The notes: a model not told the origin generated them from the letters alone. A DNA stretch of 63,991 nt, filler included, from Candidatus Babelota bacterium (GCA_017999075.1; 7 parts of 7 records of this genome joined end to end with filler, not necessarily neighbours in it), one strand, 5' to 3'. Positions 14,335-46,985 are shown, counted from the first letter of the whole stretch. Numbers and translations: made by a program.

Positions 14335-16683
14335 ATGAAAAAAAAATTTATTTTCGGTTTATTATTTGTATTGTTATCATTGATTCAATTAAAAAACGGC
14401 GAATGTATCCCATATAATATCCGTATAAACAATTCTATAAGAAATGTTATATCCGCAGTCAATCCTGTTATCACATGGAGTTCAGCAGACACATATTCGC
14501 ATATAAATATCCAAATTTCAAATACTTCTGATTTTTCTTCAAATTATATTGATTCTTCAATCGCGTATTCATTAAATTTTATTGAAATAAAAACAGTTTT
14601 AAATGATACGTATTACGTGCGTATCAGGACTTCTCAAAACAGTTTAAATTATACTGACTGGTCTGATACAGACAATACTGATTATTTCATACTTAACTTA
14701 AAATTTACTGATTTAATTATAAATACCGATACTTTTACTCATAAAAGCAGAATAACATTAACCTGGTTGTTGGAAAAACCGGATTTACAGGTTTTTCAAA
14801 CTAAATACGCAATTTATTCAAAAAAAAACTATTCTGCAGACTGGACAGACTCGACTGGTGAAATAGTTTCTATAGATTATGCCGGTTTAATAATTTTTCC
14901 TGACAGCGGAATATACAACATAAAATTAATATTAACCGATAATTTCGGCAATAAAACCGAATGTATCCCAAACTTAACGGTAATTTATGATACTGCTGAT
15001 TTTACAATTCCTCAGCTTATTAATATTTCTTATACAACTCCATTATCTTATACAGACACCATATTTCAGATCACTTCCATGGTTTATGATTCATCCTTAT
15101 TAAACAATGCAGAACTAATTCTGAGTTCAAACGAAAACGAACTTCATAAAACAAGCATTACTCCTTTAAATAATGCTTTCTTTTCTAAAACAATAACAGG
15201 TCTGAACTTATTGCCATATCAGTTTTTATATGTATCAATAAAATTTTCAGATGAATACGAAAATTCATTGCTTATATCCGACAGTATTCAAATCCACAAT
15301 TTTATTTATGATTTCATCGGTCCTCAAATAACAACATATCCTGAAATAACAGATGCAATAATACAAAATCCAAATTATGAATTAACCGTTATTTCACAGG
15401 ATAGCTCTGCAGTAAAATCAATGATTTTATGGATAAACGGGATTCAGACACTTGACACTTCATCTTCAGCTTGCATACTTAGTTTTACTGAATCAGATAC
15501 AGGGATAATTAAAATAAAAGTACAATCATCAGATTATTACAATAATATTTCAGAAGCGGTATTTTATCTTAAAAAAAACACTTCCGCTAATGCAGATTCG
15601 GAAATTGTTCCATATCTTACGAATCATTCATGGTTAGAAGAACTTCAAAACAGAAATGGAATACTGTATTCAATTCCTTCTTCGATAAAGTTGTATTTTA
15701 ATTCAAAAGTATCAACTGATTCTCCAGCTGTTTATTTATACGATGAAGACGGTTTCATAAAACTTAATCCTGTACAATTGTCAGATACCTCTCTGGAATG
15801 CGTCTTAACCGGAATTCCAATAACCTCATGCGAAAATTATTACATAAAAATTTCCGGAACAGATTATAACAATATTAATTTTAATAATGAAGACAATAAA
15901 ATTTATTTCAAACTTATGGGTTCATCTTCTTTACCTGTAGTTATAAACAAATCTTCAGTTGTGATGGAAATACCTCCGAATACATTTTCAGAACCTTACT
16001 GGATAAACATTGAGAAACTCAACTATTCATCTTCTGATATTCAAACTGCATATCAATCTGACTCTTCAGTATCATATCTGAGAACCAGCAGCGAAAACAT
16101 TTTAAAAATTGACGTTTATTCAAATCTATCAGTTAAATTGAATTCTCTAAATATGCCTGTAAAACTCGGGCTCAAATACTCTGATTCTGACAACAACGGA
16201 ATTATCGACGGCTCGAACAATCTTAACGAACAAAAACTTTACATATCATATCTTGATCCGGTTTCAAACCGTTTTGTCAAACCTGAAAACATTCAATATA
16301 TTGATTATGATTCAAATATCGCCTATATAACTTTATCTCATTTTTCTATATGGGCATTAAGTTATAATTCAGCCGGAAATTCTCTTGCAGAATCAGTTAA
16401 AATTTATCCGTCAGGCAGATATGCTGTTATATCAGAAATTCAATTTTTAACCATAATGCTTCATTCTTCAGGCGGAATTTACGATTTCAAAATTTTTTCA
16501 AAAAACGGTTCTAAAATAAAACAATGGTCGCAAAACTTGCCTGCAGGAAATTTAACCGATACAGTCAAATACGATTTAACTGATTTAAATGGAAAAAAAA
16601 TTAGAACAGGAACATACTTTTTAATGGTAAAATCAAATTTGACAGGTGAAGAGATTATTAAACCGTTTATAGTGGTAGAATAA
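14335..16683 (+). CDS. Secreted beta-rich protein with ZU5-like domain and T9SS/FlgD-Ig-like C-terminal domain
   Basis: Signal peptide; Ig-like strands; EIPPNTF...DSDNNGIIDG...HFSIWAL; C-terminus KIYP...KIF..NG..I...D.NGKKI.TGTY...KPFIVVE. Confidence 0.65.
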   Translation: MKKKFIFGLLFVLLSLIQLKNGECIPYNIRINNSIRNVISAVNPVITWSSADTYSHINIQISNTSDFSSNYIDSSIAYSLNFIEIKTVLNDTYYVRIRTSQNSLNYTDWSDTDNTDYFILNLKFTDLIINTDTFTHKSRITLTWLLEKPDLQVFQTKYAIYSKKNYSADWTDSTGEIVSIDYAGLIIFPDSGIYNIKLILTDNFGNKTECIPNLTVIYDTADFTIPQLINISYTTPLSYTDTIFQITSMVYDSSLLNNAELILSSNENELHKTSITPLNNAFFSKTITGLNLLPYQFLYVSIKFSDEYENSLLISDSIQIHNFIYDFIGPQITTYPEITDAIIQNPNYELTVISQDSSAVKSMILWINGIQTLDTSSSACILSFTESDTGIIKIKVQSSDYYNNISEAVFYLKKNTSANADSEIVPYLTNHSWLEELQNRNGILYSIPSSIKLYFNSKVSTDSPAVYLYDEDGFIKLNPVQLSDTSLECVLTGIPITSCENYYIKISGTDYNNINFNNEDNKIYFKLMGSSSLPVVINKSSVVMEIPPNTFSEPYWINIEKLNYSSSDIQTAYQSDSSVSYLRTSSENILKIDVYSNLSVKLNSLNMPVKLGLKYSDSDNNGIIDGSNNLNEQKLYISYLDPVSNRFVKPENIQYIDYDSNIAYITLSHFSIWALSYNSAGNSLAESVKIYPSGRYAVISEIQFLTIMLHSSGGIYDFKIFSKNGSKIKQWSQNLPAGNLTDTVKYDLTDLNGKKIRTGTYFLMVKSNLTGEEIIKPFIVVE

Positions 16684-18671
16684 TGATTTTAATTAAAAAC
16701 AATATATTTTTGTATATCATCTTTTTTTTGGTTGTTCAACCTGCGGCTTTCGCAAAAGGCGTTGACAGTTCGCTAGGTCAGATGACAAGATCTTTCAGCG
16801 GTAACTTTTATAATGATTGTTTGAGGGCAGGAGTTGGAGGTCAGACTCCTGCTATACTGATGAATCCATCATTAAGTTATTCAGATAAATTTTCTTCTTC
16901 AATAGAACTATATAATCTGAACAAATATTCGAAAGTCGAAAACAATTCAAATTACAACAGCCTTAATTTTATTTTAAAAGAACGGGAATTGTATAAATTC
17001 AATGATATCCAATTCGGATTTCATTACTCAAACTTTTCAGTCAAAGATATTGAAGAATATGATTTAACTGGAACGTTCAGGGGCAAAACTTCAGATGAAG
17101 AATCATTGCTGTTAATAAATGCTAATGTTCCTTTTATAATAAAAAACGAAAAATTCAGAACAGGAATTAACTTTAAATACTATACTCATTCTATTGCTTC
17201 TTACAAGGCAGTTTCGTTCGGAGCTGATGCAGGAATATCATTTTCAAAAAATAATTTCAGTTCAGGATTATCTATCAAAAACATTTTTTCTACAAAACTT
17301 GATTATAAAAATTACGGCGGTAAGATTCCTGTTCAAATCTGCGCAGGAACCGGATACTTATTTCAAATATCAAAAAAATCTAATGTTTCAATTGCATTAG
17401 ATTACATAGCAAAATCCGAAAATACAGATAACTGCTTGGCTTATGGCTTTGATTTCGGTTATCTTTTCACTGATAAATTTACGGCAAATTTTATTTATGG
17501 TTCCGACAATATTTATATATCTCATTCCATTGGCATCAAAATCAATTATGACAAAAAATTAAATTGCGGTTTTTCTTATTCTTTAAATAAAAACCCGGAA
17601 CTCGGCGACAATACTGCGGTTTTCCTCGGATGGAATTTCGGAGTGCTTGAAATAGAACGGTTTGAAAAATACAGTAAAATGGAGAAGGAAGGCGATAATT
17701 TTTATAAATCAGGAGAATGGCTGAACGCTTTAAAATACTGGGAATCCGCATATAAATTATATCCTGCAAAACAAACACGTGCAAAAGTATCTTATGATTT
17801 ATTAAAACAGCAGGTTGATTACAGAGAAAATTACAATTCAAATCTCTTTAGAACAAATACCGAAAATTTTCTCAAAGGAAAAGAGAATTTAAATGCTGGA
17901 AAATTATTTGAATCAATAGGATATTTTTCAGGAATTAAATATAATGATGATCCTAAAAATATGGAATTATTCGAAAAAGCCGGAGATTATATAAAAAAAA
18001 TAAGTCTTATTATATTGGAATCCAAAAGCAAATCTGGAATTACTGATGATTCTACAGTTAAAACAACTCAGGATAAATCATATAATACAGTAACATATGA
18101 TACTGAAAGTTTAAAACAATTTATATCAACTTTTATAGATATGGACAGACTTGAACTGGCAAACTCTTATTTTAAACTTTATTCAAAACACTTTTCAGAT
18201 GCCGATTCATTGATTATACAAAATAAAATCTCATCCAAAAAAATTGAAATTGAAAATAAAGAACTTCTGAAATCAGAATTTTCCTCAATTTCAGAAAAAA
18301 TAAAACAGGCTTTCTCTGAAAACAATTATATATCCGTAATAGAACTTTACATATCGGCAAAATCAAAATTTTCAAATTACAATTTTTTGAATTTTTCTAA
18401 TTTAACCATATATTATGAACAATCAAAAATTAAATTGCAGGAAGCAGAATTAAGATCCAGTAAAACAGAACCTGTAAAAATCGATTATCAGCAGATTGAA
18501 AATTTTTATATAAATGCCGCAAAACATTATCTGAACTATCTCCAGACAAACAGCAAATCAGAATTGATTCAAAGTATAGGGTTTTACGAAAAAATCCTTG
18601 AGATTGATCCGCTCCACAAATGCAGGGCTGATTATGAAAAAGCAAAAGCTTTGATTAAATCTATGGAGTAA
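16683..18671 (+). CDS. PorV/PorQ-like (UPF0164-type) beta-barrel with C-terminal TPR/helical region
   Basis: Signal peptide, NPS motif, GINFKYY, FGADAG, GLSIKN, NPELGDN; TPR-like C-half; overlaps the upstream stop (TAATG). Confidence 0.65.
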   Translation: MILIKNNIFLYIIFFLVVQPAAFAKGVDSSLGQMTRSFSGNFYNDCLRAGVGGQTPAILMNPSLSYSDKFSSSIELYNLNKYSKVENNSNYNSLNFILKERELYKFNDIQFGFHYSNFSVKDIEEYDLTGTFRGKTSDEESLLLINANVPFIIKNEKFRTGINFKYYTHSIASYKAVSFGADAGISFSKNNFSSGLSIKNIFSTKLDYKNYGGKIPVQICAGTGYLFQISKKSNVSIALDYIAKSENTDNCLAYGFDFGYLFTDKFTANFIYGSDNIYISHSIGIKINYDKKLNCGFSYSLNKNPELGDNTAVFLGWNFGVLEIERFEKYSKMEKEGDNFYKSGEWLNALKYWESAYKLYPAKQTRAKVSYDLLKQQVDYRENYNSNLFRTNTENFLKGKENLNAGKLFESIGYFSGIKYNDDPKNMELFEKAGDYIKKISLIILESKSKSGITDDSTVKTTQDKSYNTVTYDTESLKQFISTFIDMDRLELANSYFKLYSKHFSDADSLIIQNKISSKKIEIENKELLKSEFSSISEKIKQAFSENNYISVIELYISAKSKFSNYNFLNFSNLTIYYEQSKIKLQEAELRSSKTEPVKIDYQQIENFYINAAKHYLNYLQTNSKSELIQSIGFYEKILEIDPLHKCRADYEKAKALIKSME

Positions 18672-27751: not shown

Positions 27752-28177
27752 ATGTTTAAAAATACTTCTTATAACCAAACTTTTAATATACTGCATAGAG
27801 GTCTTGATTGTACAACATTGAGACATCAGACAATTGCAAATAATATATCAAATGTGAATACTCCTCATTATAAACGTAAAGAAGTTACTTTTGAAGGAGA
27901 ACTTCATAGGGCGTTGTATGGTCCTCAGCCCATACCTGCGGCTGTTACGCATGAGAATCATTTAAGATTTAAAGGTCAGGTTGAATTATCTGAAGTTGTT
28001 CCTAAAGTGAATGTAGAAAATGAAACTTTTATCAGAAATGATGAAAATAATGTTGATATGAATCAGGAAATGGCTGAACTTGCAAAAAATAACTTGAGTT
28101 ATGATTCTTATATTACAAGTATGACAGTAATGGTGCAGCAATTGAAATCAGTACTTCAGAAAGGCGGTAGAGTATAA
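27752..28177 (+). CDS. flgB: Flagellar basal-body rod protein FlgB
   Basis: RHQTIANNISNVNTPHYKRKEVTFE; RNDENNVDMNQEM. Confidence 0.95.
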   Translation: MFKNTSYNQTFNILHRGLDCTTLRHQTIANNISNVNTPHYKRKEVTFEGELHRALYGPQPIPAAVTHENHLRFKGQVELSEVVPKVNVENETFIRNDENNVDMNQEMAELAKNNLSYDSYITSMTVMVQQLKSVLQKGGRV

Positions 28178-28550
28178 TGCAGATATCGTCAGCAGTTAGT
28201 TCTGTAGGATTGAATTCATACCGAGTTAAAAATACAGGATTATTCAGAGCAATCAACAGCGCAGCTTCAGGAATGACGGCTGAAACTTTGAGAATGGATG
28301 TTATTTCAAATAATATAGCAAATGTAAATACTACAAGAACTCCTGAAGGCGGAGCATATAAAAGAAAAGATGTTGTGTTTGAACCGAGAAGTTTTTACGG
28401 TTATGATTTTGATGTTCCGAAAATTGAGAATATGAGTGATTTATATGAACTTGCAGGAACCGGCGTTCGTGTAGTTGATATTGTTGAAGATAAAAAAAAT
28501 CCTATGAGACTTGTTTATAATCCGGATCATCCTGATTCATTTAAATATTC
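28177..28550 (+). CDS. flgC: Flagellar basal-body rod protein FlgC, truncated
   Basis: SGMTAETLRMDVISNNIANVNTTRTPEGGAYKRK; YNPDHPD. Confidence 0.95.
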
Positions 28551-28685
28551 NNNNNNNNNNNNNNNNNNNNNNNNNNNNNNNNNNNNNNNNNNNNTTAATT
28601 AATTAANNNNNNNNNNNNNNNNNNNNNNNNNNNNNNNNNNNNNNNNNNNNTTCAACTAAAAAATAAAAAAAAATAAAAATATAAT

Positions 28686-28712
28686 TTAATTTTTTACTTT
28701 TTTTGCCGATAT
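28686..28712 (+). promoter_or_regulatory. sigma28 promoter of flagellin gene
   Basis: TTAA-N15-GCCGATAT; -10 matches the sigmaD consensus, -35 is weak. Confidence 0.65.
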
Positions 28713-28858: not shown

Positions 28859-31800
28859 ATGTTAGTTACAACAAATTTAGGCGCGTATCAATCATTAAGA
28901 TATTTCAACAACACGAATAATGTTGTATCAAAAACATTACAGCGTTTATCTTCCGGATTACGCATAAACTCTGCTTCTGATGATTCAGCAGGATTAAGCG
29001 TTTCAGAAAAATTTAAATCCGACCTTCTTGGTATGCAGCAGGCTTTAAGAAATGTTCAAGAGGGTATTTCAATACTACAAATCGCAGACGATTCATATAT
29101 ACAGGTTCAAAATACTTTAAACAAAATGAAATGCTTGGCTATTCAATCTGCTAACGATACTTTATCTGATGACGAACGCGCTGCTTTAGATAATGAATTA
29201 TTTCAGTATAAAGTTGAATTAGATAGAGTTTTCAGAAGAACTACTTCAGGAAATTATCAGCATATTTTCGGAGAACCTGAAACAGGATGGATGACAAAAA
29301 CAAGTTCTGAAACACCTATAACTTACAATACTTCAAAAACATACAACGAAGGTTATTCGGAAAATTATAGTATAGGAACAAATTTAACAACTGCTAACAT
29401 AAGAGCTGCAAATGCTTCAAATATACTTGGAAAACACCAAGCTATAGATATAGGTACTTCTCAAACTGTTTTTACTGAAAGCACTGGACAATCGGAAACA
29501 TTTCAAACAGGAAGAACAGACACTTTTAATGTTACATCAAACACTCAGACAAAATCAGTAGGAATAACTGAAACAACTTATACTCCAGGAGTTACCGATA
29601 CTTTTACACGCGGTTTAATAGATACTTTTACAGCTGGAAATACAAAAACATGGACTAGAGGAACTCATGAAACTCAATTCATTGATGGTTCTATGAATAT
29701 AAATTTAAGTGTATCTCCCGACACTGCTTCGGTTATTGTAAAAAAAATAACAGGAGCCGGCAGTGAAACATTGACTTTAGGAACAGATTATTCTATTGGA
29801 GGCGGCGGAAACCAGACTATAAATTTTTTCGGAGCAGGAATCAGTAGCGGAGATCAGATTTATGTTGAATATGTGGAAGCAGATGGAAGCAAATTTGATT
29901 TAGGAGAATATGCTGAAACAGATTCTTTTATTGTGAAAGTATCTTCGCTAAATGGCGGGGCTGCTCTTACAGAAGGGGTTCATTATCAAATCACAGATAC
30001 AGGAACAGGACACAGAATAGAATTGCTTGACCCTGCTCCTGCAGGTCCCGGCGGCGGAAATTATATGCTTATAGGAGATAACAACGAAACTCATCATTCA
30101 ATTAATATTCAATATACAAAACAGGATGAAAATAAGTTCACGATTTCAGGAGCAGGAGCAGGAGAAAGAATTCTTGATTATGGAGACGGAGTAACCGGAG
30201 AAGTGGTTAAAACCGTGTCTTCTCTTGAAACTGTAGGTGCAGGAACTATTGCAGCAGGAACGACTTTGGTTAAAGGAACTCATTATATTTTATCAGACGA
30301 CGGAAGCGGAAATTACACCGGAATTGAATTAATTGGAAATTATAAGTTAAAAGGGAATAAAAATGGTGCAGCAGGAACTCAGCAGCAATCTCTAAAAATT
30401 GAATATGTTAGAACAGGAGACAATATAATCACACTAAACAATCCTCTTCTTGATTATGCTGGATCTTCTACTGGTTCGGAAAAAGTTACTTTTAACGGTG
30501 CAACTTTAACAAGAGACACTCATTATACAGTTGCAGGCAATGTTATAACTTTATCTTCTGCATCAAATTTTAAAGGTTCAAACAGTGCTGTCAACAACCA
30601 TAGTTTTAATATAAAATATTTGACTGATGTTTCAGAAAATACCATAGCATTAACTAACGAACCTGCTAACGAATCAGTAATGCAGGTAAGGGTAAACGGA
30701 GCTTTATATGCAGATACTCGTTTTACTCTTAATCAAGGAGCTACTATAGGAACAGTCGAAGGAGACGAAACATTAACTTTTGATGACCCGTGGAAATTAC
30801 GCGGTGGAGATAGTGTAACAATAACTTATATGACTCAGGATCCTTACGTGTGGGATATTATAGAAGCTGATCCTATACTAAGCGGAACTGAAAAAGTATA
30901 TATAAACGGAACTTTAAAAACAGCTGGAACTGATTACACTTTAACTTCTGCAGCTGGCGCTAATCAGATTACTTTTTCAGCAGGGTTGATTACTGGTTCA
31001 TCAACTTTAAGCATTCAATATTTGACAACTTTGGAAAACAGCTTTACTTTAAATCAAAACCCGCTTGATTACTTTACTGGAGCAGGTGTTGACGATAATA
31101 AAAAATGCGGTTCTGAAATAGTTAAAGTTAACGGTGTAACCAAAACTGCAGTTACACACTATAATATTGACGGCAACACTGTATCTTTTCAATATAACTT
31201 GTCGGCAGGTGATGTGGTTACTGTAGAATATGCTCATACAGATCAATTTAATCTTACCGACGGAACTCCTCTAGATTATTACGTAGCTGATAATGATATT
31301 TGCGGGTCAGAAATTTTAAAACTTGGCGGCGTAGAATTAACTGCAGGAGCTGCTAATGATTACACTATTAATGGAACAACTATAGATTTATCCAATACAA
31401 CCATTGTAGGAAATAAATCTGTTTCCATAGAATATGCCGATAACGATACGTTCACTTTACGTGATGAAAGCAGCAATCCCGTAACTCCATTTCTTGATAG
31501 TTTAGAAATTTATGTCGAAGCTGATCCGGTAAAAAAAAATGAAGGAACAGGAGCAGGAGATTGGTGGCATTTTATACCTGATCCTCCTGGAACTGAAACT
31601 AATCAAATTCAATTCAATCCAAACGATGGAACAACTAATGGTCTTCGAGGTCAAAACAGCATTGAAGCGCGATTTATAAAAGTTGCAACACCATTAACAA
31701 TAAATTTAGAAAATAACGCTTTAAATTATGCTACAAATACTGCTGATGGCACTATTTATGATTCAGCATTAGTTTATATTGATAATAATCATAACGGTTC

Positions 31801-33490
31801 CGCTGATGCTGGTGATGAACTTCTTCAAGAAAAAGCTGTTCAAGATGACGGTATAGATTGTTACTGGTTCACCGCAGCAAATCAAATAAAATTAAGCGAA
31901 AACCTTCAATCAAAACTTGTAGGGAATGTTGATTTGATCGTTGATTACGCATACGATACAGGAGCTGCACGTTCAGATATAATTACTTTGCCGGCAACTC
32001 CGATGAATTACACTCCTGCAACAGGTTCAGAAAAAATTTATATTAAAGATCAGGATACAAACGGAGACGGACTGGTTACTGCAGCGGACACTGATGAAGG
32101 ATGGCGATTATTAACCAGATCTGAAGACGGCGGAGCTACTGACGATTATGTTTTAACAGGAAATCAAGTTCAATTTGTAAACAATGGCAGATTTGCAGGA
32201 AATCCTGATGTTTATGTTCAATATATAACAGATAATCAAAATTTGTTTACAACCTCAAAAAAATTTCTTGATTATACTGATGGAGCATTAGATGGTTCTG
32301 AAATAGTAACTGTTGATGGAATTCAATTATCACAAACAGGAGGGGACTATACTGTTTCAGAAAGTTCTGCTGGAAATGGATATGATCAGGTAACTTTACA
32401 GGGGTTGGATAGATTGGTGGGAATGAAAAGTAATGGCACTTTAAAACCAACAGATGATACTCAGCATACTATAACAATTGCCTATGATACAAAAAATACA
32501 TTTTCATTAGTTGATTTGCCTTTTTCAGCAAGTAATTACATAGGATGGATAATAGATTATGAAAATACAACAGGCAGCGGAATGACCGTAACTCTTGACG
32601 GAACAACATTGACATACGGAACAGATTACATTGTAAATCTTACTGATGCAGGAAACACTACAGATTATCTTAATCCTACTCCTCCAATTAACAGAACTCA
32701 GCATTATCATTCTTCAAAACCTGTTTATAATTACGAACTTGAACTTATTAATAATGGCAGACTAGTGGGAATGGATGGTGCAGCACAGCATGAACTTATA
32801 GCAACTTTTGATTTTGACGTGTTTGAAGAATATAAAGTAAGCGTTAATACATTAGATGGTACGACTCCAGGGGTAAGAAACATTGAAATAATAAATCAAG
32901 TTACTGGACTCCCTTTAACAGAAGATTTAATTAATGGTTATGAACTTCTTGATGTAGAACAATATTATGATGAAGTAGCCGATATAACTTACAGCAATTA
33001 TTATATTTCAATTCATGGAAGCGATAATGTAGGTCCTCATTCAGTAAATTATGAATTTCTTGATGAAACTGAAATTGACCCGTTTACAGCTCAAATTCAT
33101 TCAGGCCCAAAATCAAATGAGATTATCAATATTGTTTTACCTGGCGCAAGCGTTAAAAGTTTAGGAGTCAGAGAATTATCATTATTGACACAACAGTCAT
33201 CATCCGAAGCAATGACTGCAATTGACAATGCATTGACTCAGGTTACTTCAAACCGAGCTGTTATAGGTTCGTCTGTTTCAAGAATTATGAAAACTTACAA
33301 TAATCTAATGTACCGTATGGAAAATACAGATTATACTCTTGCCCAGATTAAAGCTGCTGATGTGGCTGAAAATGCAATGGAATATTTTAAAGCTAAACTT
33401 GCCACAGCTAAAACGTTAAATTTCTACAATTACTCGAATTTCAGACAATTAACACCTTCAACAATAATAACGCAATTCTATAAAAATTGA
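28859..33490 (+). CDS. Giant flagellin (1543 aa) with ~1270-aa repetitive beta-rich insertion
   Basis: Flagellin N domain (QRLSSGLRINSASDDSAGL, IQSANDT.SDDER) and C domain (IDNAL..V...RA.IG...R, IKAADVAE); ~14 internal repeats. Confidence 0.9.
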   Translation: MLVTTNLGAYQSLRYFNNTNNVVSKTLQRLSSGLRINSASDDSAGLSVSEKFKSDLLGMQQALRNVQEGISILQIADDSYIQVQNTLNKMKCLAIQSANDTLSDDERAALDNELFQYKVELDRVFRRTTSGNYQHIFGEPETGWMTKTSSETPITYNTSKTYNEGYSENYSIGTNLTTANIRAANASNILGKHQAIDIGTSQTVFTESTGQSETFQTGRTDTFNVTSNTQTKSVGITETTYTPGVTDTFTRGLIDTFTAGNTKTWTRGTHETQFIDGSMNINLSVSPDTASVIVKKITGAGSETLTLGTDYSIGGGGNQTINFFGAGISSGDQIYVEYVEADGSKFDLGEYAETDSFIVKVSSLNGGAALTEGVHYQITDTGTGHRIELLDPAPAGPGGGNYMLIGDNNETHHSINIQYTKQDENKFTISGAGAGERILDYGDGVTGEVVKTVSSLETVGAGTIAAGTTLVKGTHYILSDDGSGNYTGIELIGNYKLKGNKNGAAGTQQQSLKIEYVRTGDNIITLNNPLLDYAGSSTGSEKVTFNGATLTRDTHYTVAGNVITLSSASNFKGSNSAVNNHSFNIKYLTDVSENTIALTNEPANESVMQVRVNGALYADTRFTLNQGATIGTVEGDETLTFDDPWKLRGGDSVTITYMTQDPYVWDIIEADPILSGTEKVYINGTLKTAGTDYTLTSAAGANQITFSAGLITGSSTLSIQYLTTLENSFTLNQNPLDYFTGAGVDDNKKCGSEIVKVNGVTKTAVTHYNIDGNTVSFQYNLSAGDVVTVEYAHTDQFNLTDGTPLDYYVADNDICGSEILKLGGVELTAGAANDYTINGTTIDLSNTTIVGNKSVSIEYADNDTFTLRDESSNPVTPFLDSLEIYVEADPVKKNEGTGAGDWWHFIPDPPGTETNQIQFNPNDGTTNGLRGQNSIEARFIKVATPLTINLENNALNYATNTADGTIYDSALVYIDNNHNGSADAGDELLQEKAVQDDGIDCYWFTAANQIKLSENLQSKLVGNVDLIVDYAYDTGAARSDIITLPATPMNYTPATGSEKIYIKDQDTNGDGLVTAADTDEGWRLLTRSEDGGATDDYVLTGNQVQFVNNGRFAGNPDVYVQYITDNQNLFTTSKKFLDYTDGALDGSEIVTVDGIQLSQTGGDYTVSESSAGNGYDQVTLQGLDRLVGMKSNGTLKPTDDTQHTITIAYDTKNTFSLVDLPFSASNYIGWIIDYENTTGSGMTVTLDGTTLTYGTDYIVNLTDAGNTTDYLNPTPPINRTQHYHSSKPVYNYELELINNGRLVGMDGAAQHELIATFDFDVFEEYKVSVNTLDGTTPGVRNIEIINQVTGLPLTEDLINGYELLDVEQYYDEVADITYSNYYISIHGSDNVGPHSVNYEFLDETEIDPFTAQIHSGPKSNEIINIVLPGASVKSLGVRELSLLTQQSSSEAMTAIDNALTQVTSNRAVIGSSVSRIMKTYNNLMYRMENTDYTLAQIKAADVAENAMEYFKAKLATAKTLNFYNYSNFRQLTPSTIITQFYKN

Positions 33491-38182: not shown

Positions 38183-40705
38183 GTGTTTGCTGCAATTTGT
38201 TTTGATATAAACAATGATAATAAATCGGAAATAATTGTCGCTTCATCAGATAATTCATTAATTGTTTATGACAATAATCTGTCGGTATTGAAGAAAATTT
38301 ATACTAATGGACCGGTAACGTCATTGCCTGCAATTGCGGATATAGATTATGACGGGATTTTAGATATTGTATGCTGGACATCAACTGGGTATCTTCAGGC
38401 TTTTGACCTATCGACAGGAATTATTAAAACAGGATTTGAAAATATTAAAGTTACCAATTATCAGCCTCGATATATAAGTCCTGTTATAGCAGATTTCAAT
38501 AAAGATAATGAACTTGAAATAATAGTTGGCAATACTCAGTTGTATAGTTTTAATAATCGCGGCATACTGAATCCTAATTATCCTGTAAATTTAATTTCTG
38601 AAGTTGAAAGACCTTTTATTTTATATGACAACAACAGGGATGGATATAATGATTTGATAGTATGCTGTCAGGATAAAAGAATAAAACTTCTAAATTATAA
38701 AAATAACAGCGCCGTAGGGGAATTAACAAGATTATCTTACAAAAGCGAATATCAGACAATGTTTTTGGCTGATTCTTTTGACGGCGACACATATCCGGAA
38801 ATTTTAGTAAATGTCCGTACTAAATTACTGATGTACACATATTCAAATAATATAAGTTTGAAGAATTTTATATTTTTTGACGATTTAAATCTGCCCGCTT
38901 TGCCGTTTTCAGATAATTTTATAGGAGCGGCTCCAATAAAAAAACATAATAATTTTGAAGTGACTTTGACTACTCATTTGGCAACATCTTATAATATTAA
39001 ACCTTACGACTATTTTTTTACAGCGCCTTTTTTATCAGTTATTGCCGATACTTTAAATATAGCGGATTCCATAGATTTTCATCCGGCGCTTATTGATAGA
39101 AAAATTACAGAACGTGTTAATTTCTATACTGCGTCATATCTGGATTATGATAATAACGGAACCCTTGATCTTATTTATCCGGGATACAAAAATTATCTTA
39201 ACATAATAGGTTATCAAGATGAATCATCTCAATTTATGCAAAAACTTGATGAAATTCCGTTAAATGGCAAAGATGTTATGACTGCGGTGATTGCTGATGT
39301 TGACGGGAATAGCCGCGGAGACATAGTTTATAATGATGAAAATCAGGTTTATATTATTTCGACTGATTCTTTGAAAGCGTATTCTGCATATCCGCTTGGA
39401 GATATTCGTAATACTAACACTAATTTTTTTATAACTCATCCTGTAATATGCAATGATTCTTGTTATATAACTCGCGGCAATGAATTTACTGTAAAATGGA
39501 AAAATCCTAATTTTTTTGATACTTATTATTATTCTTATTCTATTGATAATGGAAAAACGTTTACTCAATATTTGCAGGACACTCAGGTTACTTTTACAAG
39601 TCTTGCGGATTCAGATTATATTTTTTTGCTGAAAACAAAAAATGAATTTAACAGAACAACTGCAGAAAATTTGAAATATATTTTTAAAATTGATAATGTT
39701 GCTCCTGAAATAAACATTATATCTCCGCAGCAAAATCAAACTGTCTCTGAGATTTGGAATGTAAAATTTAATGTTAAAGAAAATAATATTGATACTGTTT
39801 TATGCAGTATCAGAACTGATACGGATTATTATATAATTTATGAATCTCATTATAAAACTGATACAATAGAATTTCAGTTTGATTTTTCACAATATACTTC
39901 AGAAACGCTTACTTTTAAAATTTCGGCTTTTGAATTTTTTTCAAATAATAAGACGGAAACTGAAATTGTTTTATTTAATTCGCGAAAAAAAATTTTATTG
40001 ACGCCTGATTTTAATGAAAAGATTTTTTTTAATAATGATGGATTGACAATTTCTGTTCCGCAGAACAGCGTTGAATATAATCAGTTGCTTTCTGTGTTTT
40101 GCGCTCAATTGTCAGAATACCGGAATCTGGCTTTATACAGTCCTGTGTATTATATCGGCGGATCGGATATAAAATTAAAACAGCCGTTAAACTGTTCGAT
40201 ACAGTTAAACGATACTGAATTGAACCACATCAAATTTTCCAAACCGTTATTTTCTATGAATTACAACGGAATACCTGTTTCTGTTTACTATGCGCAGGAT
40301 ACGTCAACTGCCAATGCAGTTAAACTCGGCGGTTCTGTATTTGACAACTATATTAATTTTAATTTTAACGGCAGCGGATATTATTTTGCCGCTTTATATT
40401 CGGATAGTTTTTTATATACGGATACTGTGGATACTTCAGAGTTTAAATTGAATATAATTCCAAGAATAATAACTCAAAATCAAACTTCATTTTTTAATTT
40501 TTATTTTGAAAATCAGCAATATTTATCTGTAAAATCATATAATCTTAATGGTTTATTTATAGAAAATATTTTTGAAGGAAGTTTAAACTCTGGAATTCAT
40601 AATATACCGGTGATTTTTCCCCGGGAGAAATATAGTTCCGGAATATATTTGATATTATTTGAATCAGATTGCAGAAAAATTAAAAAGGTCATTTACATTA
40701 AATAA
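38183..40705 (+). CDS. FG-GAP/VCBS beta-propeller + Ig-like + CTD protein (N-terminus apparently missing)
   Basis: Repeated D.D.DG..[DE]I motifs, IDNVAP, C-terminal YNLNG.....SGIY.I.....KKVIYIK; no signal peptide. Confidence 0.8.
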   Translation: MFAAICFDINNDNKSEIIVASSDNSLIVYDNNLSVLKKIYTNGPVTSLPAIADIDYDGILDIVCWTSTGYLQAFDLSTGIIKTGFENIKVTNYQPRYISPVIADFNKDNELEIIVGNTQLYSFNNRGILNPNYPVNLISEVERPFILYDNNRDGYNDLIVCCQDKRIKLLNYKNNSAVGELTRLSYKSEYQTMFLADSFDGDTYPEILVNVRTKLLMYTYSNNISLKNFIFFDDLNLPALPFSDNFIGAAPIKKHNNFEVTLTTHLATSYNIKPYDYFFTAPFLSVIADTLNIADSIDFHPALIDRKITERVNFYTASYLDYDNNGTLDLIYPGYKNYLNIIGYQDESSQFMQKLDEIPLNGKDVMTAVIADVDGNSRGDIVYNDENQVYIISTDSLKAYSAYPLGDIRNTNTNFFITHPVICNDSCYITRGNEFTVKWKNPNFFDTYYYSYSIDNGKTFTQYLQDTQVTFTSLADSDYIFLLKTKNEFNRTTAENLKYIFKIDNVAPEINIISPQQNQTVSEIWNVKFNVKENNIDTVLCSIRTDTDYYIIYESHYKTDTIEFQFDFSQYTSETLTFKISAFEFFSNNKTETEIVLFNSRKKILLTPDFNEKIFFNNDGLTISVPQNSVEYNQLLSVFCAQLSEYRNLALYSPVYYIGGSDIKLKQPLNCSIQLNDTELNHIKFSKPLFSMNYNGIPVSVYYAQDTSTANAVKLGGSVFDNYINFNFNGSGYYFAALYSDSFLYTDTVDTSEFKLNIIPRIITQNQTSFFNFYFENQQYLSVKSYNLNGLFIENIFEGSLNSGIHNIPVIFPREKYSSGIYLILFESDCRKIKKVIYIK

Positions 40706-43285
40706 ATGAAAAAAGTTTTATACATTGTTATTTTATTTTTTATATTTAACCAATCCGTTTTGTGCGACAATTCCGATTTTAGAGTTTTAACCGGTTTTCC
40801 CTACGCTACATTCGGAGATTTTTATGGAAACGGCGCAGTTGCTGATATTGATGCTGATGGAATAAAAGAGTTTATAATCGGGGATAAAAGCGGATATGTG
40901 TATGCTGTTCAAAGTAATGGAATATCTAAATCAGGTTTTCCTGTTTTTTTAGGTGATGCTATCTGGTCATCGCCTGCTATAGCTGACGTTGACAATGACG
41001 GAAAATCTGAAATAATCATAGGTTCAAAAAATTCAAAGATAAATGTAATAAAATTTGATGGAACCCTGGCATCAGGATTTCCGGTTGAGTTAACTCAGGA
41101 AATCAGAGGAGCTCCGTCAATTGCAGATATTGATAAAAACGGAACTCCTGATATAATAGTTCCTGGACTTGACGGATATATTTATGTGATTGACGGGTCA
41201 GGTAGAAACTTATCAGGCTGGCCGCAAAGAATAGTTCCTAATACGGAAAACAGCGCATATAATTTTGATTATGGCTCAAGGACTACAGTACTGATTACAG
41301 ATTATGACATGGACGGATATTTTGAAATTACAGTGTGCGCTAACGGAGGAGTGTTTTCGATATTCAGACATAATGGAGAAAGAATTCTTTCAAGTAAAAT
41401 CAATGCAAGAATTGACGCGCCGCCAGCAGCTGCGGATATTGATAATGACGGAAAAATAGAATTTATTATTACAGGCTGGGATTATTACGCATATATTTTC
41501 AACATAGATTCATATGGAAAAATTGTGTATAAGACTAATTATCCTTTTTATTTTAATGAGCTGTTGAGGTGTCATCCTGCAATATATGATTTTAATGATG
41601 ACGGTCTTGATGACATGATATTTTTTATATTGACCAATTATAATGCGGCAAATAATCCCGGCCGTTTTCTTATTTTAGAAAATAATGCTGATTTTTTGTC
41701 GATACCGTATTCCGATTCTTCAGGAGTTTCATGTCCTGTTCTGGCAAATCTTGACAATGATACGGAAATTGAAATTGCAGTTGTTACTTATGGAGGAGAA
41801 CTTCAAATATATAATCATAACGGTTCTGCAGTAAAATATCAATATTCCATGCCTGGTAAAAAAACAATGGAATCAACGCCTGTTCTGAATGATTTTGACA
41901 ATGACGGAAAAATGGATATTGTGGTCGCAACTCAGGAACAATTTATTACAGCTTTGACTCTTGAAGGTTCTGCTGATTATAATTCGGTTTACAATTCAAA
42001 ATTTATGTTCACTCTTAACAATACCGGAAATAATTTTGATTTTTCTACACCTCTGATTTATGAACCGACTAATAACTTGATACACGACACTGCAGTTACT
42101 TTTAAATGGATACAGATGGAAAACATTTCCGGAGTGAAAAGTTCTTACAGATTAAATAATTCAGATTATTCTGATTCTGATTTTATATCGGAAAAAACTT
42201 TTTCTGATCTGACTGACGGGGAATACGTTTTTACGGTTGACCAGTATTTCAAAAATAAAAAAACTATGACTCCGGGATACAGGAAAATCATAATTGATAA
42301 TAAACTTCCTGAAGCTTGTTTAACTAAAACTAATTTTTCGGGCGGCGGAATAATTAATTTGAACGGAACAGCTTCTGATTCTAATTTTTATTGTTATAAT
42401 ATAAAAATTTTATCTTCTTCCGGGATTACAGTTGCCGATAATAATTTTTTTAATGTTGTAATAGATACAGGAACGCTGTATTCCTTTAATTCTATATATT
42501 ATCCTGATGATACTTATACTGCGTATTTAACGGTTTTTGAAACTGATACAAGTTATTTTTCATTTGATACTGCCTTGTTTTCAGTCAGAAATGAATCCGC
42601 ATTTGTGTCGCCTTCTCAAAACAGCGTTTTTAACGCGGATAATGGTAATATAAAAATCAATATACCTGTTAAAACCGTTGATAAAAATTTGAAATTAATT
42701 GTATATAAATGGGCTGCGGAAGATATGCCGGGCGAAATTTCTTTTGTTTCAAATAAATATATGATTGAAATTGATGATACTTCGGTAACAAAAAATTTAG
42801 ATATATCAATAAAAATTTTAGATTCGTTGCAGCAGGTGCAATCTGCGCATATGAAGAAACCAATAAGATATAATCCTCAAAATGTTAATAATTATTATAT
42901 AGCGTATAATAATGGAATAGACAGTATATGGCTGAATATAGGCGGCTATTATGATTTTTTTGATAAAACAGTGACAGTATCTTTTAATAAATCAGAAATT
43001 TATGCGGTCGCAATTAATCCCGGGTTATTTGTTCTTGAGTATAAGCTTCCTGTAGCATTGAATAAAAGGATTCTTCAGTCAGAAGATGATGAAATAATTG
43101 TTCAGAATATTTCAGGTTCTGCAGAAATAAGCATTTTTGATATTAATGGAAAATTAATATTAAAAAGCAATAAGAATAAATGGAATGGAAAAGATAAAAA
43201 TGGCAGACATGTTAAATCGGGTTTGTATATATTAATCTCTGAAGATTGCGGAGATGTGTTTAAAAATGTTATTTATGTTAAATAA
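40706..43285 (+). CDS. Secreted FG-GAP/VCBS propeller + Ig-like + CTD protein
   Basis: Signal peptide; SSPAIADVDNDGK.EI repeats; C-terminus IFDINGKLI...WNGKDKNG..V.SGLY.....VIYVK. Confidence 0.85.
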   Translation: MKKVLYIVILFFIFNQSVLCDNSDFRVLTGFPYATFGDFYGNGAVADIDADGIKEFIIGDKSGYVYAVQSNGISKSGFPVFLGDAIWSSPAIADVDNDGKSEIIIGSKNSKINVIKFDGTLASGFPVELTQEIRGAPSIADIDKNGTPDIIVPGLDGYIYVIDGSGRNLSGWPQRIVPNTENSAYNFDYGSRTTVLITDYDMDGYFEITVCANGGVFSIFRHNGERILSSKINARIDAPPAAADIDNDGKIEFIITGWDYYAYIFNIDSYGKIVYKTNYPFYFNELLRCHPAIYDFNDDGLDDMIFFILTNYNAANNPGRFLILENNADFLSIPYSDSSGVSCPVLANLDNDTEIEIAVVTYGGELQIYNHNGSAVKYQYSMPGKKTMESTPVLNDFDNDGKMDIVVATQEQFITALTLEGSADYNSVYNSKFMFTLNNTGNNFDFSTPLIYEPTNNLIHDTAVTFKWIQMENISGVKSSYRLNNSDYSDSDFISEKTFSDLTDGEYVFTVDQYFKNKKTMTPGYRKIIIDNKLPEACLTKTNFSGGGIINLNGTASDSNFYCYNIKILSSSGITVADNNFFNVVIDTGTLYSFNSIYYPDDTYTAYLTVFETDTSYFSFDTALFSVRNESAFVSPSQNSVFNADNGNIKINIPVKTVDKNLKLIVYKWAAEDMPGEISFVSNKYMIEIDDTSVTKNLDISIKILDSLQQVQSAHMKKPIRYNPQNVNNYYIAYNNGIDSIWLNIGGYYDFFDKTVTVSFNKSEIYAVAINPGLFVLEYKLPVALNKRILQSEDDEIIVQNISGSAEISIFDINGKLILKSNKNKWNGKDKNGRHVKSGLYILISEDCGDVFKNVIYVK

Positions 43286-43411
43286 CCGTATAAAATCAAG
43301 AAAATACTTTTTGAAAAACAGATGAAAATTAATTTTATATTTTATTGAAAACAATTTTTTTAAAATTTTATACGTATATTTTGTAAATTTTAAAATACTG
43401 GATTGAAAATT

Positions 43412-45682
43412 ATGAAAATGAAACATTATTTGATTATTTTTATTTTATTTGCTGATTGTTTGAATGCTTATCAAATAATAAATACGACACGGGCAGGAGC
43501 GATATCTGCTTTTACAGGAATAGCTGATGACGCGTCTTCGATTTATTATAATCCGGCTGGTTCGTCATATATCAATAATCATGAAATATATATGTTTTCA
43601 TCGGATATTTATGATTTTGATATCACTCATAATCAGATTTTGTATTCTATGCCGATTTACAAAAATTTAGGACTGGGAGTAGGATATGCTGGAACTGATT
43701 TCAAGGATAACGAACTGTCGTTTTCACAGGATAATTTTATTTTTAATTTTTCAGGGAAATTATTTAAAAATTTAAGTTGCGGATTTAATTATAAGACGTT
43801 TAGCGTGGATGCTGATTATTTGTCCATTATCAAGAATAAAGGCACATCTAATTCTTATGATGCCGGAGCTCTTTTTTTTAAAAATAATTTTAAAGCCGGT
43901 ATTTTATTTGCCAATATAAATGAACCTGATATTAAATATTCAGATGGGGTTAAAACCGGATTTGAAGAAAGTTATGTGAGATTAGGAGTTTCTTATAGTT
44001 TCGACAAACTGTTGTTCGGAGCTGATTATGATGACAGAAAAATATTATATTTCGGCGGGGAATACAGGGTTTTACCCAATATTATTCATATATTCGGAGG
44101 ATTGAAAAAACAATTTTCTCCTGATGATTCGATAAGATATTCTTTCGGGTTAAGATTTTCGGTGAAAGATTTATTCATAGATTATTCAAATGATTTGAAT
44201 TCTGATTTAGGAAATACCCATAAATTTGCGGTTGGGTATAAATTCGGATTTAAAAATTTTGTAAAATTGAGGAATAACAATGATGCAGTTATGTTTTTTC
44301 CACACTTGAAAAATATTTATGCAAATCATGATAACAAATATACAGAATTTATGATTGTTAATAGTTCAGATAAAACTCTTGATATAGGAATGGAAATTAT
44401 AAATAATAAATTTATTGATATGCCGAATAAAAAACAGGTTAATTTTAAACCTTATGAAGAAAAAATAGTTTGCCTTCCAATAAATTTCAATGATAAAATT
44501 TTTGAAATAAATGATTTTGCTTCAGAACAGTTTATGATAAATTTTTATTACAGAATAAACAACAGGGAATATATTGATTCAGAAAAATTTGCAGCTGTTA
44601 TTTTTAATAAAAATTCATTTTTATGGAATGAACCTGAAAAAATAGGAAATTTTATAACTCCTAAATCGTTTTCAGTTGTAAAATTCAACAATGTGCTTTT
44701 TGAGAGAATTAAAATAGAAAATTTATCATTGCCTCTTCCTGAAAATATAAACAGGGGAATTATATTGTTTGATTCTTTAAAAATGATAGGAATGCAATAC
44801 AAAAAAGATTCAATATATCCGTATAATGGTTTTGATGACGAACAAAAACTGCTTGATTTTGTTCAATATCCGGCTCAGACTTTAGAATTAAAAAATGGGG
44901 ATTGCGACGATTTTTCTGTTTTATTTGCTTCATTATTTCTTAATCTCGGAATAAACGTTAAATTAATAATACATCAGGAACACATTTATATTGCATTCGA
45001 TTCCGGAATAAAAAACATCCGGGAATTTGAATATTTGAAAAATAAACTGATGCATATTGACGGTGAATATTATGTACCTGTTGAAGTTTCGGCTCTGAAT
45101 GAAAGTTTTATTCACGCATGGATGATTGGAATGGAAAATTTATCTGAATCCGATTATTTTGTGATTGACGTTAAAAAAATATGGGAAAAATATCCTCCTT
45201 TAAATTTGAAGGATAATTTTAATCCTGATATGCCTTTTATTGAAAATTTGATTTCCGAATTTAATTATGAATATTATGAGTTTACAAAAACATTCATAAA
45301 TACTTCGGGTAAAATTGAAAATAAAACAGGTTCTGAAATAAAAAAAATAGCGGATGATTTGATTGAAAAAAAAGATTATTTTCAGGCATTGAATTATTAT
45401 CTTTTTTTATTTCATAACGATAAACGCAATGCTGCGCATATTAATAATATCGCCAATCTTTATTATCTTATAAACAATTATCAAAAATCAATTGATTTTT
45501 ATTTAATGGCTTCAGAACTTGATAAGGATAATCCTTATTATTTTGCTCAAATATCTCTGTTATATTATAAACTTAACGAAAACTATAAGGCTGAATATTA
45601 TTATAATAAAACTGTTTCGATTGAAAAAAAATATTTTGATAAATATATTGATTCGCTTCAGTTTTGGAATAATTCAAGATAA
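43412..45682 (+). CDS. PorV-like beta-barrel + transglutaminase-like domain + TPR
   Basis: AFTGIADDASSIYYNPAG, DLGNTHKF; YP..TL....GDCDD.S.L..S...G.....HIY..D, YVPVE; C-terminal TPRs. Confidence 0.8.
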   Translation: MKMKHYLIIFILFADCLNAYQIINTTRAGAISAFTGIADDASSIYYNPAGSSYINNHEIYMFSSDIYDFDITHNQILYSMPIYKNLGLGVGYAGTDFKDNELSFSQDNFIFNFSGKLFKNLSCGFNYKTFSVDADYLSIIKNKGTSNSYDAGALFFKNNFKAGILFANINEPDIKYSDGVKTGFEESYVRLGVSYSFDKLLFGADYDDRKILYFGGEYRVLPNIIHIFGGLKKQFSPDDSIRYSFGLRFSVKDLFIDYSNDLNSDLGNTHKFAVGYKFGFKNFVKLRNNNDAVMFFPHLKNIYANHDNKYTEFMIVNSSDKTLDIGMEIINNKFIDMPNKKQVNFKPYEEKIVCLPINFNDKIFEINDFASEQFMINFYYRINNREYIDSEKFAAVIFNKNSFLWNEPEKIGNFITPKSFSVVKFNNVLFERIKIENLSLPLPENINRGIILFDSLKMIGMQYKKDSIYPYNGFDDEQKLLDFVQYPAQTLELKNGDCDDFSVLFASLFLNLGINVKLIIHQEHIYIAFDSGIKNIREFEYLKNKLMHIDGEYYVPVEVSALNESFIHAWMIGMENLSESDYFVIDVKKIWEKYPPLNLKDNFNPDMPFIENLISEFNYEYYEFTKTFINTSGKIENKTGSEIKKIADDLIEKKDYFQALNYYLFLFHNDKRNAAHINNIANLYYLINNYQKSIDFYLMASELDKDNPYYFAQISLLYYKLNENYKAEYYYNKTVSIEKKYFDKYIDSLQFWNNSR

Positions 45683-46221: not shown

Positions 46222-46347
46222 ATGAGTTCTGAAAAAACAGAAGAAATGAAAAAATCTATTCCTATTTATGCAGTTCTAACTAAACCTGACGGATTTTCTA
46301 CGATATACGATGTGATAAAAGATATTGAAACAGGAAATAAACAATGA
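46222..46347 (+). CDS. 41-aa hypothetical peptide coupled to recombinase
   Basis: MSSEKTEEMKKSIPIYAVLTKPDGFSTIYDVIKDIETGNKQ*; ATGA overlap with 46344. Confidence 0.45.
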   Translation: MSSEKTEEMKKSIPIYAVLTKPDGFSTIYDVIKDIETGNKQ

Positions 46348-46925
46348 GGAAGAAAACAGATAATTCTCAAAAATGCTTATTCGATGATGAAATTAAATTT
46401 CTGCTCGATTCAATCGAAAACATTGAGGATAGAGCTGCAATCGAATTCGGTCTTGAAACTGGTTTCCGTGCCTCTGATATAATCGGAATCATAACTTCAA
46501 ACATTGACTTTGAACATCAGTTCATAAAAGTTTGGGATGAAAAAAAAGACGAATGGAGAACAGTCGTATTCCCTAAATCAACAGGAAACATTTTAAAAAT
46601 GTATCTGAACGCGCGGAAGAAGAACGGACAAAAACTTTTTCCATATTCCGAAAAAACATTGCAGCGTAAACTTCAGGATTACTGCCGCAAAGCGAACATC
46701 AGGGCAATAAAAAAATCAAAGACCGGAACATCCGTCGGCTGGCACTGGCTCCGCCATACTTTCATCCGACGTTCTCAAATGTTCGGCCGTGATATTAAAC
46801 TTGTTCAGCAGAATACAGGCGACACAATCGAAACCATCCTGAAATATTACAGGGATTTATCAATCGAAGATCGTATAAAAGAAATGGAATCAAAACCAAT
46901 TTATGGATTTGAAAATAAAAGTTGA
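46344..46925 (+). CDS. Short tyrosine recombinase (catalytic domain only)
   Basis: ETGFRASD (R), HWLRHT (HxxR), LKYY (Y). Confidence 0.85.
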   Translation: MRKKTDNSQKCLFDDEIKFLLDSIENIEDRAAIEFGLETGFRASDIIGIITSNIDFEHQFIKVWDEKKDEWRTVVFPKSTGNILKMYLNARKKNGQKLFPYSEKTLQRKLQDYCRKANIRAIKKSKTGTSVGWHWLRHTFIRRSQMFGRDIKLVQQNTGDTIETILKYYRDLSIEDRIKEMESKPIYGFENKS

Positions 46926-46949
46926 CATTACCCATAAAATAAATATAAT
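46922..46949 (+). promoter_or_regulatory. Consensus sigma70 promoter
   Basis: TTGACA-N16-TATAAT upstream of 46986. Confidence 0.65.
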
Positions 46950-46985
46950 ATAATAAAATTTTAATTTTCTGGGGTATGGTTTTTT

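Follow-up and report, generated by a model that had tools for sequence, protein, structure and literature searches.

In the flagellin FliC of Salmonella (domains D0-D3) both termini are located in the filament core, and domain D2 is built mostly by the returning chain and finished by a short outgoing segment. Domains made of N- and C-terminal moieties have been described for flagellins (PMC8306008), and an out-and-back topology is stated for these proteins by Thomson et al. 2018 (PMC6248924), who define as giant the flagellins longer than 1000 amino acids. Whether tandem repeats in such proteins form contiguous or split out-and-back domains is a question raised in the same paper (PMC6248924). 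Here a giant flagellin gene of a wastewater bacterium is analysed, found on the plus strand at positions 28859..33490 of a 63,991-nucleotide stretch of DNA from Candidatus Babelota bacterium (GCA_017999075.1). The whole stretch, seven records joined end to end with filler, is called the window. The product of the gene, P0001, to which residue numbers refer unless stated otherwise, features between the terminal flagellin domains a Thr-rich run of short units, the last of which is unit 15, and 14 small domains in tandem, denominated D1-D14 (the helical D0 and D1 of the flagellin core are specified as such). We tentatively read the surface insert (residues 140-1404) as a two-pass rod, in which each outgoing unit would lie on one returning domain, and give this reading slightly less than an even chance. 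Flagellin identity, the periodic run, the 14 domains, the conserved layout, the predicted pairing of unit 15 with D1 and the short interdomain junctions are its observed part, from which we infer the placing of units 1-14.

P0001 shares with FliC the location of both termini in the core. FliC has three nested levels with unrelated folds, whereas P0001 would have 14 levels of one fold, with one unit of 8-10 residues per level. The design, if real, may be regarded as a 14-fold iteration of the FliC principle in which a single fold recurs. The statement in the original prediction that no design of this scale had been described holds for the scale only, as out-and-back nesting is a textbook principle. 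The largest flagellin solved by electron cryomicroscopy, the 793-amino acid protein of Geovibrio thiophilus, has a domain D5 that is a duplicate of D4 inserted in a D4 loop (PMC11532411). Domains D2-D5 of Geovibrio are similar to the P0001 insert in being beta-rich outer domains with a duplication nested within a flagellin; in contrast, one nested duplication is described, against 13 in P0001, the folds are FliD-D2-like and DUF992-like, and no periodic strand run is reported in the available part of the article. The giant flagellins of Oceanospirillales (Bermanella, Oleibacter) exceed 1000 amino acids and feature tandem DE regions (PMC6248924). As far as the available part of that article goes, these proteins have two DE repeats plus a DX insert, whereas P0001 has 14 small sandwiches. 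No Oceanospirillales DE-region flagellin is among the five HMMER matches (P0002-P0006) described below, no search aimed at the DE region having been made.

In donor-strand complementation, known in chaperone-usher pili, archaeal threads and Bacillus endospore appendage (ENA) fibres, a strand from the next subunit fills the missing strand in a sheet. The P0001 units would likewise be outside strands pairing with an immunoglobulin (Ig)-like sandwich. In contrast to those systems, donor and acceptor would belong to one chain, the unit would be an added edge strand, and the outcome would be the stiffening of a rod, not subunit polymerization. The presence of one unit per domain within the same chain, as deduced from the sequence, argues for such an intramolecular arrangement. 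Among fold classes, unit 15 plus D1 is predicted to come closest to the beta-sandwich at the N-terminus of podovirus tail fibres and tailspikes (T7 gp17 type), which in phages is a single virion-attachment domain, and in P0001 would be a 14-fold array within a flagellin. Full-text literature searches returned no description of a flagellin with a serial strand run; the supplementary tables of PMC11532411 (682 AlphaFold clusters), which lie outside the scope of that search, might hold a similar model.

The gene is organized as follows (window coordinates, strand, feature, basis):

28859..33490, plus strand: giant flagellin gene P0001, 1543 amino acids, stop codon included in the coordinates (list of open reading frames, ORFs; translation).
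28859..29275, plus strand: N-terminal D0/D1 helical core, residues 1-139 (Pfam Flagellin_N; end set at the conserved IFGE motif).
29276..29692, plus strand: Thr-rich strand run, residues 140-278, about 15-16 unit-equivalents of 8-10 amino acids (composition, periodicity, segmentation, positional conservation).
29456-29689, plus strand: nine clean units of the type x-T-[DE]-T-[FWY]-T-x-G, residues 200-277 (segmentation).
29663..29689, plus strand: unit 15, THETQFIDG, residues 269-277, leading directly into D1 (predicted strand; spacing from F274 to I281).
29693..33070, plus strand: array of 14 tandem small beta-sandwich domains (iterated self-trained and family hidden Markov models, HMMs; boundaries by eye), namely D1 279-342, D2 343-423, D3 424-520, D4 521-591, D5 592-661, D6 662-725, D7 726-795, D8 796-863, D9 864-941, D10 942-1035, D11 1036-1127, D12 1128-1211, D13 1212-1320 and D14 1321-1404 (residues).
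32492..33070, plus strand: D13-D14, the conserved base of the insert and best family signature (alignment A3).
33071..33487, plus strand: C-terminal D1/D0, residues 1405-1543 (Pfam Flagellin_C; alignment with P0003, P0004 and P0005).

The region singled out by the original prediction (29285..33080) corresponds to residues 143-1407. Pfam Flagellin_N matches residues 3-137 (E 2.5e-29, 102.5 bits, cut-off 26.6) and Flagellin_C residues 1452-1513 (34.2 bits, cut-off 23), and no credible Pfam match is found between the two. The top NCBIfam matches are flagellin models; FlgL also scores (E 8e-17), far below those. The IFGE motif (residues 136-139) at the end of the N-terminal core D1 is common to P0001 and its homologues. 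By sequence P0001 is a flagellin with an insert of about 1265 residues, and its length places it among the giant flagellins. The sequence is real and is no assembly artefact, since another metagenome contig (L002) carries a piece identical to the window, and in contigs of one run from a second study the pieces of P0001 that are covered match at 99% or better and are free of indels and joints.

The run hosts 35 Thr, 12 Ser, 13 Gly and 13 aromatic residues over 139 positions. Cutting at the terminal Gly or Ser splits residues 158-277 into 13 segments of 8, 8, 18, 8, 9, 10, 9, 8, 9, 8, 8, 8 and 9 residues. All are 8-10 residues long but one, the double-length segment 174-191 (18 residues), which is not unit-like; residues 140-157 are irregular as well. 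The original prediction had counted about 14 short units, which is a fair count, and all the ten units that it quoted are located at residues 158-274. The period of 8-9 residues exceeds chance both in Gly and in aromatics. Autocorrelation over residues 140-278, summed at lags 8 and 9, was matched by 1 of 2000 shuffles for Gly and by 7 of 2000 for aromatics; the periodicity of Thr at the same lags is not significant (148 of 2000). The core [ST][DEQKN][TNS][FWYTKV] is found 10 times in the run, against 5 in the other 1265 residues. No tandem repeat was detected in the run at the DNA level (Tandem Repeats Finder gave one 18-nucleotide array elsewhere in the gene), and the period is therefore a feature of the protein, not the result of recent duplication. 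In database comparisons the run matched among PDB sequences only the outer-membrane protein CmeC, weakly (E 0.019), and in Pfam only two domains of unknown function (E 0.083). These matches have been taken as compositional.

A period of 8-9 residues with terminal Gly and alternating Thr and aromatics also has the look of short hairpin strands. The run might accordingly fold on itself, as a proximal meander of 5-residue strands with x-G-x turns or as a two-sheet roll with two units per coil, and make a stalk similar to flagellin D2; domains would be complete on their own, and the array would loop or fold back. This we consider unlikely. The CmeC match, the sole one in PDB, would be in keeping with it, but a unit of 8-9 residues is too short for a coil of the known beta-helices, and the GG.G.D motif of repeats-in-toxin (RTX) nonapeptides is absent from the run, as well as from the whole protein.

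Domains in the array are 64-109 residues long, and the repeated module spans 60-odd residues. A self-trained, iterated HMM identified 13 copies, one of them weak, followed by a divergent 14th domain; E-values of such a model are circular, and boundaries have been placed by eye on the x-F-x-L and x-I-x-Y motifs. The about 14 later domains of the original prediction are thus borne out, and the copies start with x-F-x-L strands. The pattern x-F-x-L ... G-S-E-x-V-x-V-N-G ... D-Y-T ... x-I-x-Y is common to the 13 copies, whose identity to D7 ranges from 25 to 44% in alignment A4. Judged by sequence, the module belongs to no Pfam family. The Ig-like domain CBM_X2 (PF03442) exceeds the cut-off in P0003 (31.9 versus 28.9 bits), yet no single stretch passes; the same family scores in P0005 (E 0.0014) and P0006 (E 0.0081), and gives no match in P0001. 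The insert has no family in PHROGs.

The distance from the last-strand aromatic residue of one domain to the first-strand hydrophobic residue of the next is 8, 8, 8, 9, 8, 8, 6, 6, 9, 12, 8 and 6 residues at the 12 junctions measured (range 6-12, median 8), and there is therefore no room for a further strand in cis before D2-D14. Only D1 is preceded by one, as had been claimed, at the spacing found between F274 and I281. At 8 residues, the commonest junction distance (29693-32500) equals the period of the units in the run. Between D8 and D9 the junction reads D-N-D-T-F-T-L, which resembles the unit V-T-D-T-F-T-R-G, and the segments at junctions and first strands may be the origin of the units, or be mimicked by them.

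Loops rich in Asp, Asn and Gly are found in D10 (DNNHNGSADAGDELL, residues 975-988, 31781-31822) and D11 (DQDTNGDGLVTAADTDEG, residues 1063-1081, 32045-32101). They look like calcium-binding loops, and are similar in P0005 and absent in P0003. A Pfam GEVED match (E 7.8e-6) is found in the corresponding part of the P0005 array. Were units and domains paired in reverse order, D10 and D11 would face the irregular part of the run (residues 174-199), which is regular in P0003; the observation is anecdotal.

Residues 266-342, which include the end of unit 14, unit 15 and D1, have been modelled by AlphaFold2 (AF2) with 12 paralogue rows. The mean predicted local distance difference test score (pLDDT) is 79.8, the predicted template modelling score (pTM) is 0.67, and 61 of 77 residues have a pLDDT of 70 or more. 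In this model (alignment A6) residues 267-273 of unit 15 make a strand of seven residues (block pLDDT 76), predicted as confidently as the domain itself. DSSP strands need a partner, and D1 is all that the model contains besides, so that the unit-15 strand must pair with D1. The longest strands in the six-strand D1 model are 8-9 residues. The nested out-and-back architecture of the original prediction stands to this extent: the insert must leave and return because both termini sit in the flagellin core D0/D1, and unit 15 is a predicted strand of D1. Unit 15 is, however, contiguous with D1. What was claimed for the other units would be an extension of the same scheme.

On the basis of the model, we read the module as a small sandwich of Ig type, akin to those at the N-termini of phage tail fibres. 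A structural alignment independent of Foldseek matched 76 of 77 residues, those of unit 15 among them, to the P1 baseplate protein 9ay5_Y at Z 8.3, where a Z of 7-8 is, by the caveat of the aligner itself, the typical best score of models without a clear match. The same aligner found the podovirus tail fibre 8ck1_B (Z 7.9), the ENA fibre subunits 9hze_C (Z 6.7) and 9i65_E (Z 6.5), the T7 gp17 N-terminus 7boz_a (Z 6.0) and Sgo0707 (Z 5.8). Foldseek retrieved nothing at E 1e-3 or below in PDB or BFVD for unit 15 plus D1. Phage tail fibres and tailspikes with the T7 gp17 type of N-terminus head both lists, and pilins come next; query-based TM scores (TMq) reach 0.68 in PDB and 0.76 in BFVD, where a 'T7 tail fibre protein' has a TMq of 0.66. 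The profile of the 13 copies weakly matched in PDB the Sgo0707 adhesin (4igb, E 8e-4) and the Spa2 pilin (7woi, E 1.4e-3), both Gram-positive surface proteins. A language-model look-up pointed to the T7 tail fibre N-terminal domain (score 0.90), a lead only; the corresponding family PF03906 is absent among the Pfam matches of P0001 at E up to 1.

Relatives were sought by an exhaustive HMMER search with residues 200-1399 against 1.84 billion representatives (E 0.001 or below), and five proteins in total were found. P0002, a partial flagellin from a metagenome-assembled genome (MAG), is 81% identical to P0001. P0003 (1352 amino acids, high-GC-type composition) and P0005 (1589 amino acids) are full flagellins, and P0004 is a C-terminal fragment. 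P0006 (490 amino acids, E 2.6e-4) is the sole match that is not a flagellin, and its best PHROG is 'virion structural protein'. The family is tiny and is made up of three lineages, all metagenomic, in which the gene is an open frame. The P0001 insert matched 2 of 7999 scored candidates (P0001 and P0002), and the P0003 insert 1 of 8000 (P0003 alone). D13-D14, aligned with P0003, P0004 and P0005 in A3, have 20 invariant columns, and the derived profile was used as a probe for longer proteins (3 matches in 7999), genome contigs (1 of 31 stretches) and metagenome contigs, where 2 of 341 stretches matched, the first being identical to the window and the second belonging to the P0002 lineage. No new relative came from these searches. 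P0006 had no match in phage records, and no confirmed relative in viral contigs.

P0003 and P0005 are organized as P0001, with D0/D1, run, domain array, conserved two-domain base and D1/D0, and by alignment this layout is conserved at about 28-31% identity. The run is found at the same position in P0002, P0003 and P0005, and Gly is periodic also in the runs of P0003 (4 of 2000 shuffles) and P0005 (16 of 2000). P0003 has 13 domains versus the 14 of P0001, with a gap of domain length opposite D4 in alignment A1, and its run is 131 residues long. The prediction that the number of units follows the number of domains in homologues has thus one informative contrast in its favour (139 residues for 14 domains, 131 for 13, i.e. 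one unit less), P0005 being neutral, as its run measures 132 to about 149 residues depending on where the end is placed. A run folded on itself does not explain the shrinkage by one unit upon the loss of a domain. Nor would the run of P0005, which has 18 Pro and few Gly, particularly in the first half, be fit for hairpins or a solenoid; its composition would better suit an extended strap than a hairpin meander or a solenoid.

P0006 carries in both its clear repeats a leading strand (NEIV and NEVV, respectively), followed by S-G-S-G and by x-F-T-L. The spacing between leading strand and first strand is 7 in both repeats, the same as between F274 and I281 in P0001, and the junction between repeats is 21 residues long, against the 6-12 of the flagellin. 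The units of P0001 would take over the position of a leading strand that in free-standing relatives of the domain is present in cis.

For every domain the run offers 8.7 residues if only its regular part is counted, and 9.9 overall. With an extended residue measuring about 3.3 Å, this would correspond to about 29-33 Å per domain, the height of a sandwich with strands of 8-9 residues, and the fully extended run would have just the length needed to span a straight rod of 14 domains (roughly 40 nm) up to its tip.

In the two-pass arrangement that we tentatively favour, the run would leave the N-terminal core D1 as a single extended strap, would turn at the DGS hairpin (residues 276-278), and the chain would return through D1 to D14. 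Each unit of 8-10 residues would run antiparallel to the first strand of one domain, along the free edge of that strand, and would turn its only aromatic residue towards the domain. The order of pairing would be reversed, so that unit 15 meets D1, unit 14 meets D2, and the others follow suit. The strap would hold the 14 beads together as a stiff rod, roughly 40 nm long, and the C-terminal D1/D0 helices would return beside the N-terminal ones. Flagellins are exported N-terminus first. The strap would therefore emerge before the domains, and these could fold and zip onto it singly, tip to base, on emerging. It is safer to say that a unit caps the free edge of a domain than that it completes the domain, because the extra strand would be an edge strand, and domains may be complete without it. 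As to function, a thick or bristly decorated filament can be imagined; a close relative of the host encodes also about nine plain flagellins. Rather doubtful is the fuller picture, in which each subunit would carry a stiff rod of about 40 nm, 15 outgoing strands being zipped tip to base onto 14 Ig-like domains during export and the C-terminal helices being guided back across 1265 residues, to give a filament, bristled or in a thick sheath, that resembles no flagellum solved so far.

Several points weigh against the two-pass rod. No contact was obtained between any unit and D2-D14. In A6, made by MAFFT, the unit-15 segment was put on the P-L-D-Y of the paralogues, whose first strands fell on gaps, and in the AF2 model the own first strand of D1 (MNINL) is only a 2-residue bridge. 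AF2 may have put unit 15 where the first strand belongs, and in such a case D2-D14, which have a first strand of their own, would be already complete. The same would hold were the run folded on itself, as the canonical domains have both a first strand and P-L-D-Y, and may already equal the six-strand D1 model. The additional strand would be an edge strand, and such strands are often dispensable. Fold matches are all of middling strength. The count test is one contrast, to which P0005 (about 14 domains; run length between 132 and about 149 residues) neither adds nor subtracts. A gap of 8 residues in the P0003 run shifts between alignments A1 and A5, and therefore does not point to any particular unit as the one lost in P0003; A5 combined the nested construct with paralogue windows that fell on orthologous positions of the whole-protein rows, and was dropped. 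P0006 is a single sequence, and no relatives were found in which the leading strand is conserved. No two domains are more alike than the neighbours D7 and D8 (44%), which would indicate plain tandem duplication, and a strap would then call for a matching duplication of its own in the run.

Modelling of the long insert did not support the two-pass rod either. AF2 gave for residues 143-1342 (1200 residues, 5-row alignment) a mean pLDDT of 38.7 and a pTM of 0.22, 15 of the 1200 residues reaching at least 70 in pLDDT, and the run was modelled as coil (pLDDT 22-28). The result is uninformative rather than negative, though AF2 often builds repeats that it recognizes. For this reason the lack of secondary structure in the run is also weak evidence against its folding on itself, since regular repeats are usually built. 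A complex prediction of D7 (as in A4) with residues 209-244, made without controls, gave ipSAE values of 0.00 and 0.00, and counts neither way.

The coil at pLDDT 22-28 is what one would expect if only unit 15 were structural, as a part of D1, and the rest of the run were a flexible, extended and undocked tether, perhaps O-glycosylated, the length of which matches the array because the arm must be spanned. Surface Ser and Thr residues of flagellins are often O-glycosylated, the run has plenty of both, and the length match is explained equally well. Yet a tether needs neither a period of 8-9 residues, nor a conserved aromatic residue per unit, nor a conserved acidic residue two positions earlier, all features that are kept in P0003 at about 31% identity. 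A free tether of 40 nm next to a free arm of 14 domains, moreover, would not hold the arm out. We give such a tether a minor chance, on a par with that of a run folded on itself.

The MAG hosting the P0002 lineage (G001) has 13 Flagellin_N matches, about nine of which are in open frames of 258-395 amino acids. A second giant flagellin in this MAG, at least 1120 amino acids long, runs off its contig (L010 375..3734), and features a quite different insert without a strand run. In another flagellin (L011 3..1574) the insert looks by eye like a beta-propeller of the TolB/PD40 type. The sequences suggest a lineage with a large repertoire of decorated flagellins. With about nine plain frames and two other decorated flagellins in the close relative, and an FlgL score for P0001 itself, P0001 could be a minor, specialized or non-assembling paralogue not located in the propulsive filament, as a tip- or hook-proximal segment or an adhesive or secreted form, and its architecture would then say little on flagellar mechanics. 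We hold this improbable. The two terminal flagellin domains are intact and score above the cut-off, rod genes precede the gene, and the open frame is kept in three lineages; the proposal bears on what the protein does rather than on how it folds, and agrees with every structural reading, the two-pass rod included.

Upstream of the flagellin gene the following features have been identified:

27752..28602, plus strand: two ORFs of 141 amino acids with flagellar rod (Flg_bb_rod) N-terminal motifs (Pfam PF00460, 21.6 and 36.6 bits, cut-off 20.7).
28705..28711, plus strand: GCCGATA, 148 nucleotides upstream of the flagellin start codon, within an AT-rich spacer (sequence).

Both rod ORFs are located directly upstream of the flagellin gene, which thus lies in a flagellar neighbourhood; no further flagellar genes were found within the window. 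A stretch of N (masked or withheld bases) at 28590-28650 separates the rod ORFs from the promoter region of the flagellin gene. GCCGATA resembles the -10 element of sigma-28-type promoters, and is possibly such an element; taken alone the heptamer is not specific and proves little, 11 matches being found in the window versus 3.45 expected.

The remainder of the window is ordinary chromosomal DNA with about 30% GC. Three large ORFs with FG-GAP repeats are found at 38183-45682, one of which has a C-terminal sorting domain of the type IX secretion system (T9SS; Por_Secre_tail, E 4.8e-4), and TraF_2-like matches are found in two ORFs (16683-18671 and 43403-45682). This content hints at a phylum of, or related to, the Fibrobacterota-Chlorobiota-Bacteroidota (FCB) type of group. 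At 46344-56198 two ORFs of the phage integrase family, a PIN-domain ORF and an AAA-ATPase/PD-(D/E)XK ORF flank a PAS sensor kinase of 1418 amino acids, and the stretch may be mobile or recombination-prone.

How very large tandem-repeat flagellins fold with both ends in the core was left open by Thomson et al. 2018. P0001 is an unusually readable case, because the number of units and the length of the strap match the domain array, and the match suggests a rule of one outgoing strand per returning domain. If the two-pass rod does not hold, P0001 would still be a rare giant flagellin, known in three lineages, and its 14 domains, similar to those of phage tail fibres, would point to a traffic of domains between phage tails and flagella. 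If it does, no known flagellin would have domains nested more deeply, and P0001 would be a natural case of intramolecular strand capping that rigidifies a bead-on-string array. It would also provide a model for folding coupled to export, and possibly a scaffold for long rigid displays on flagella.

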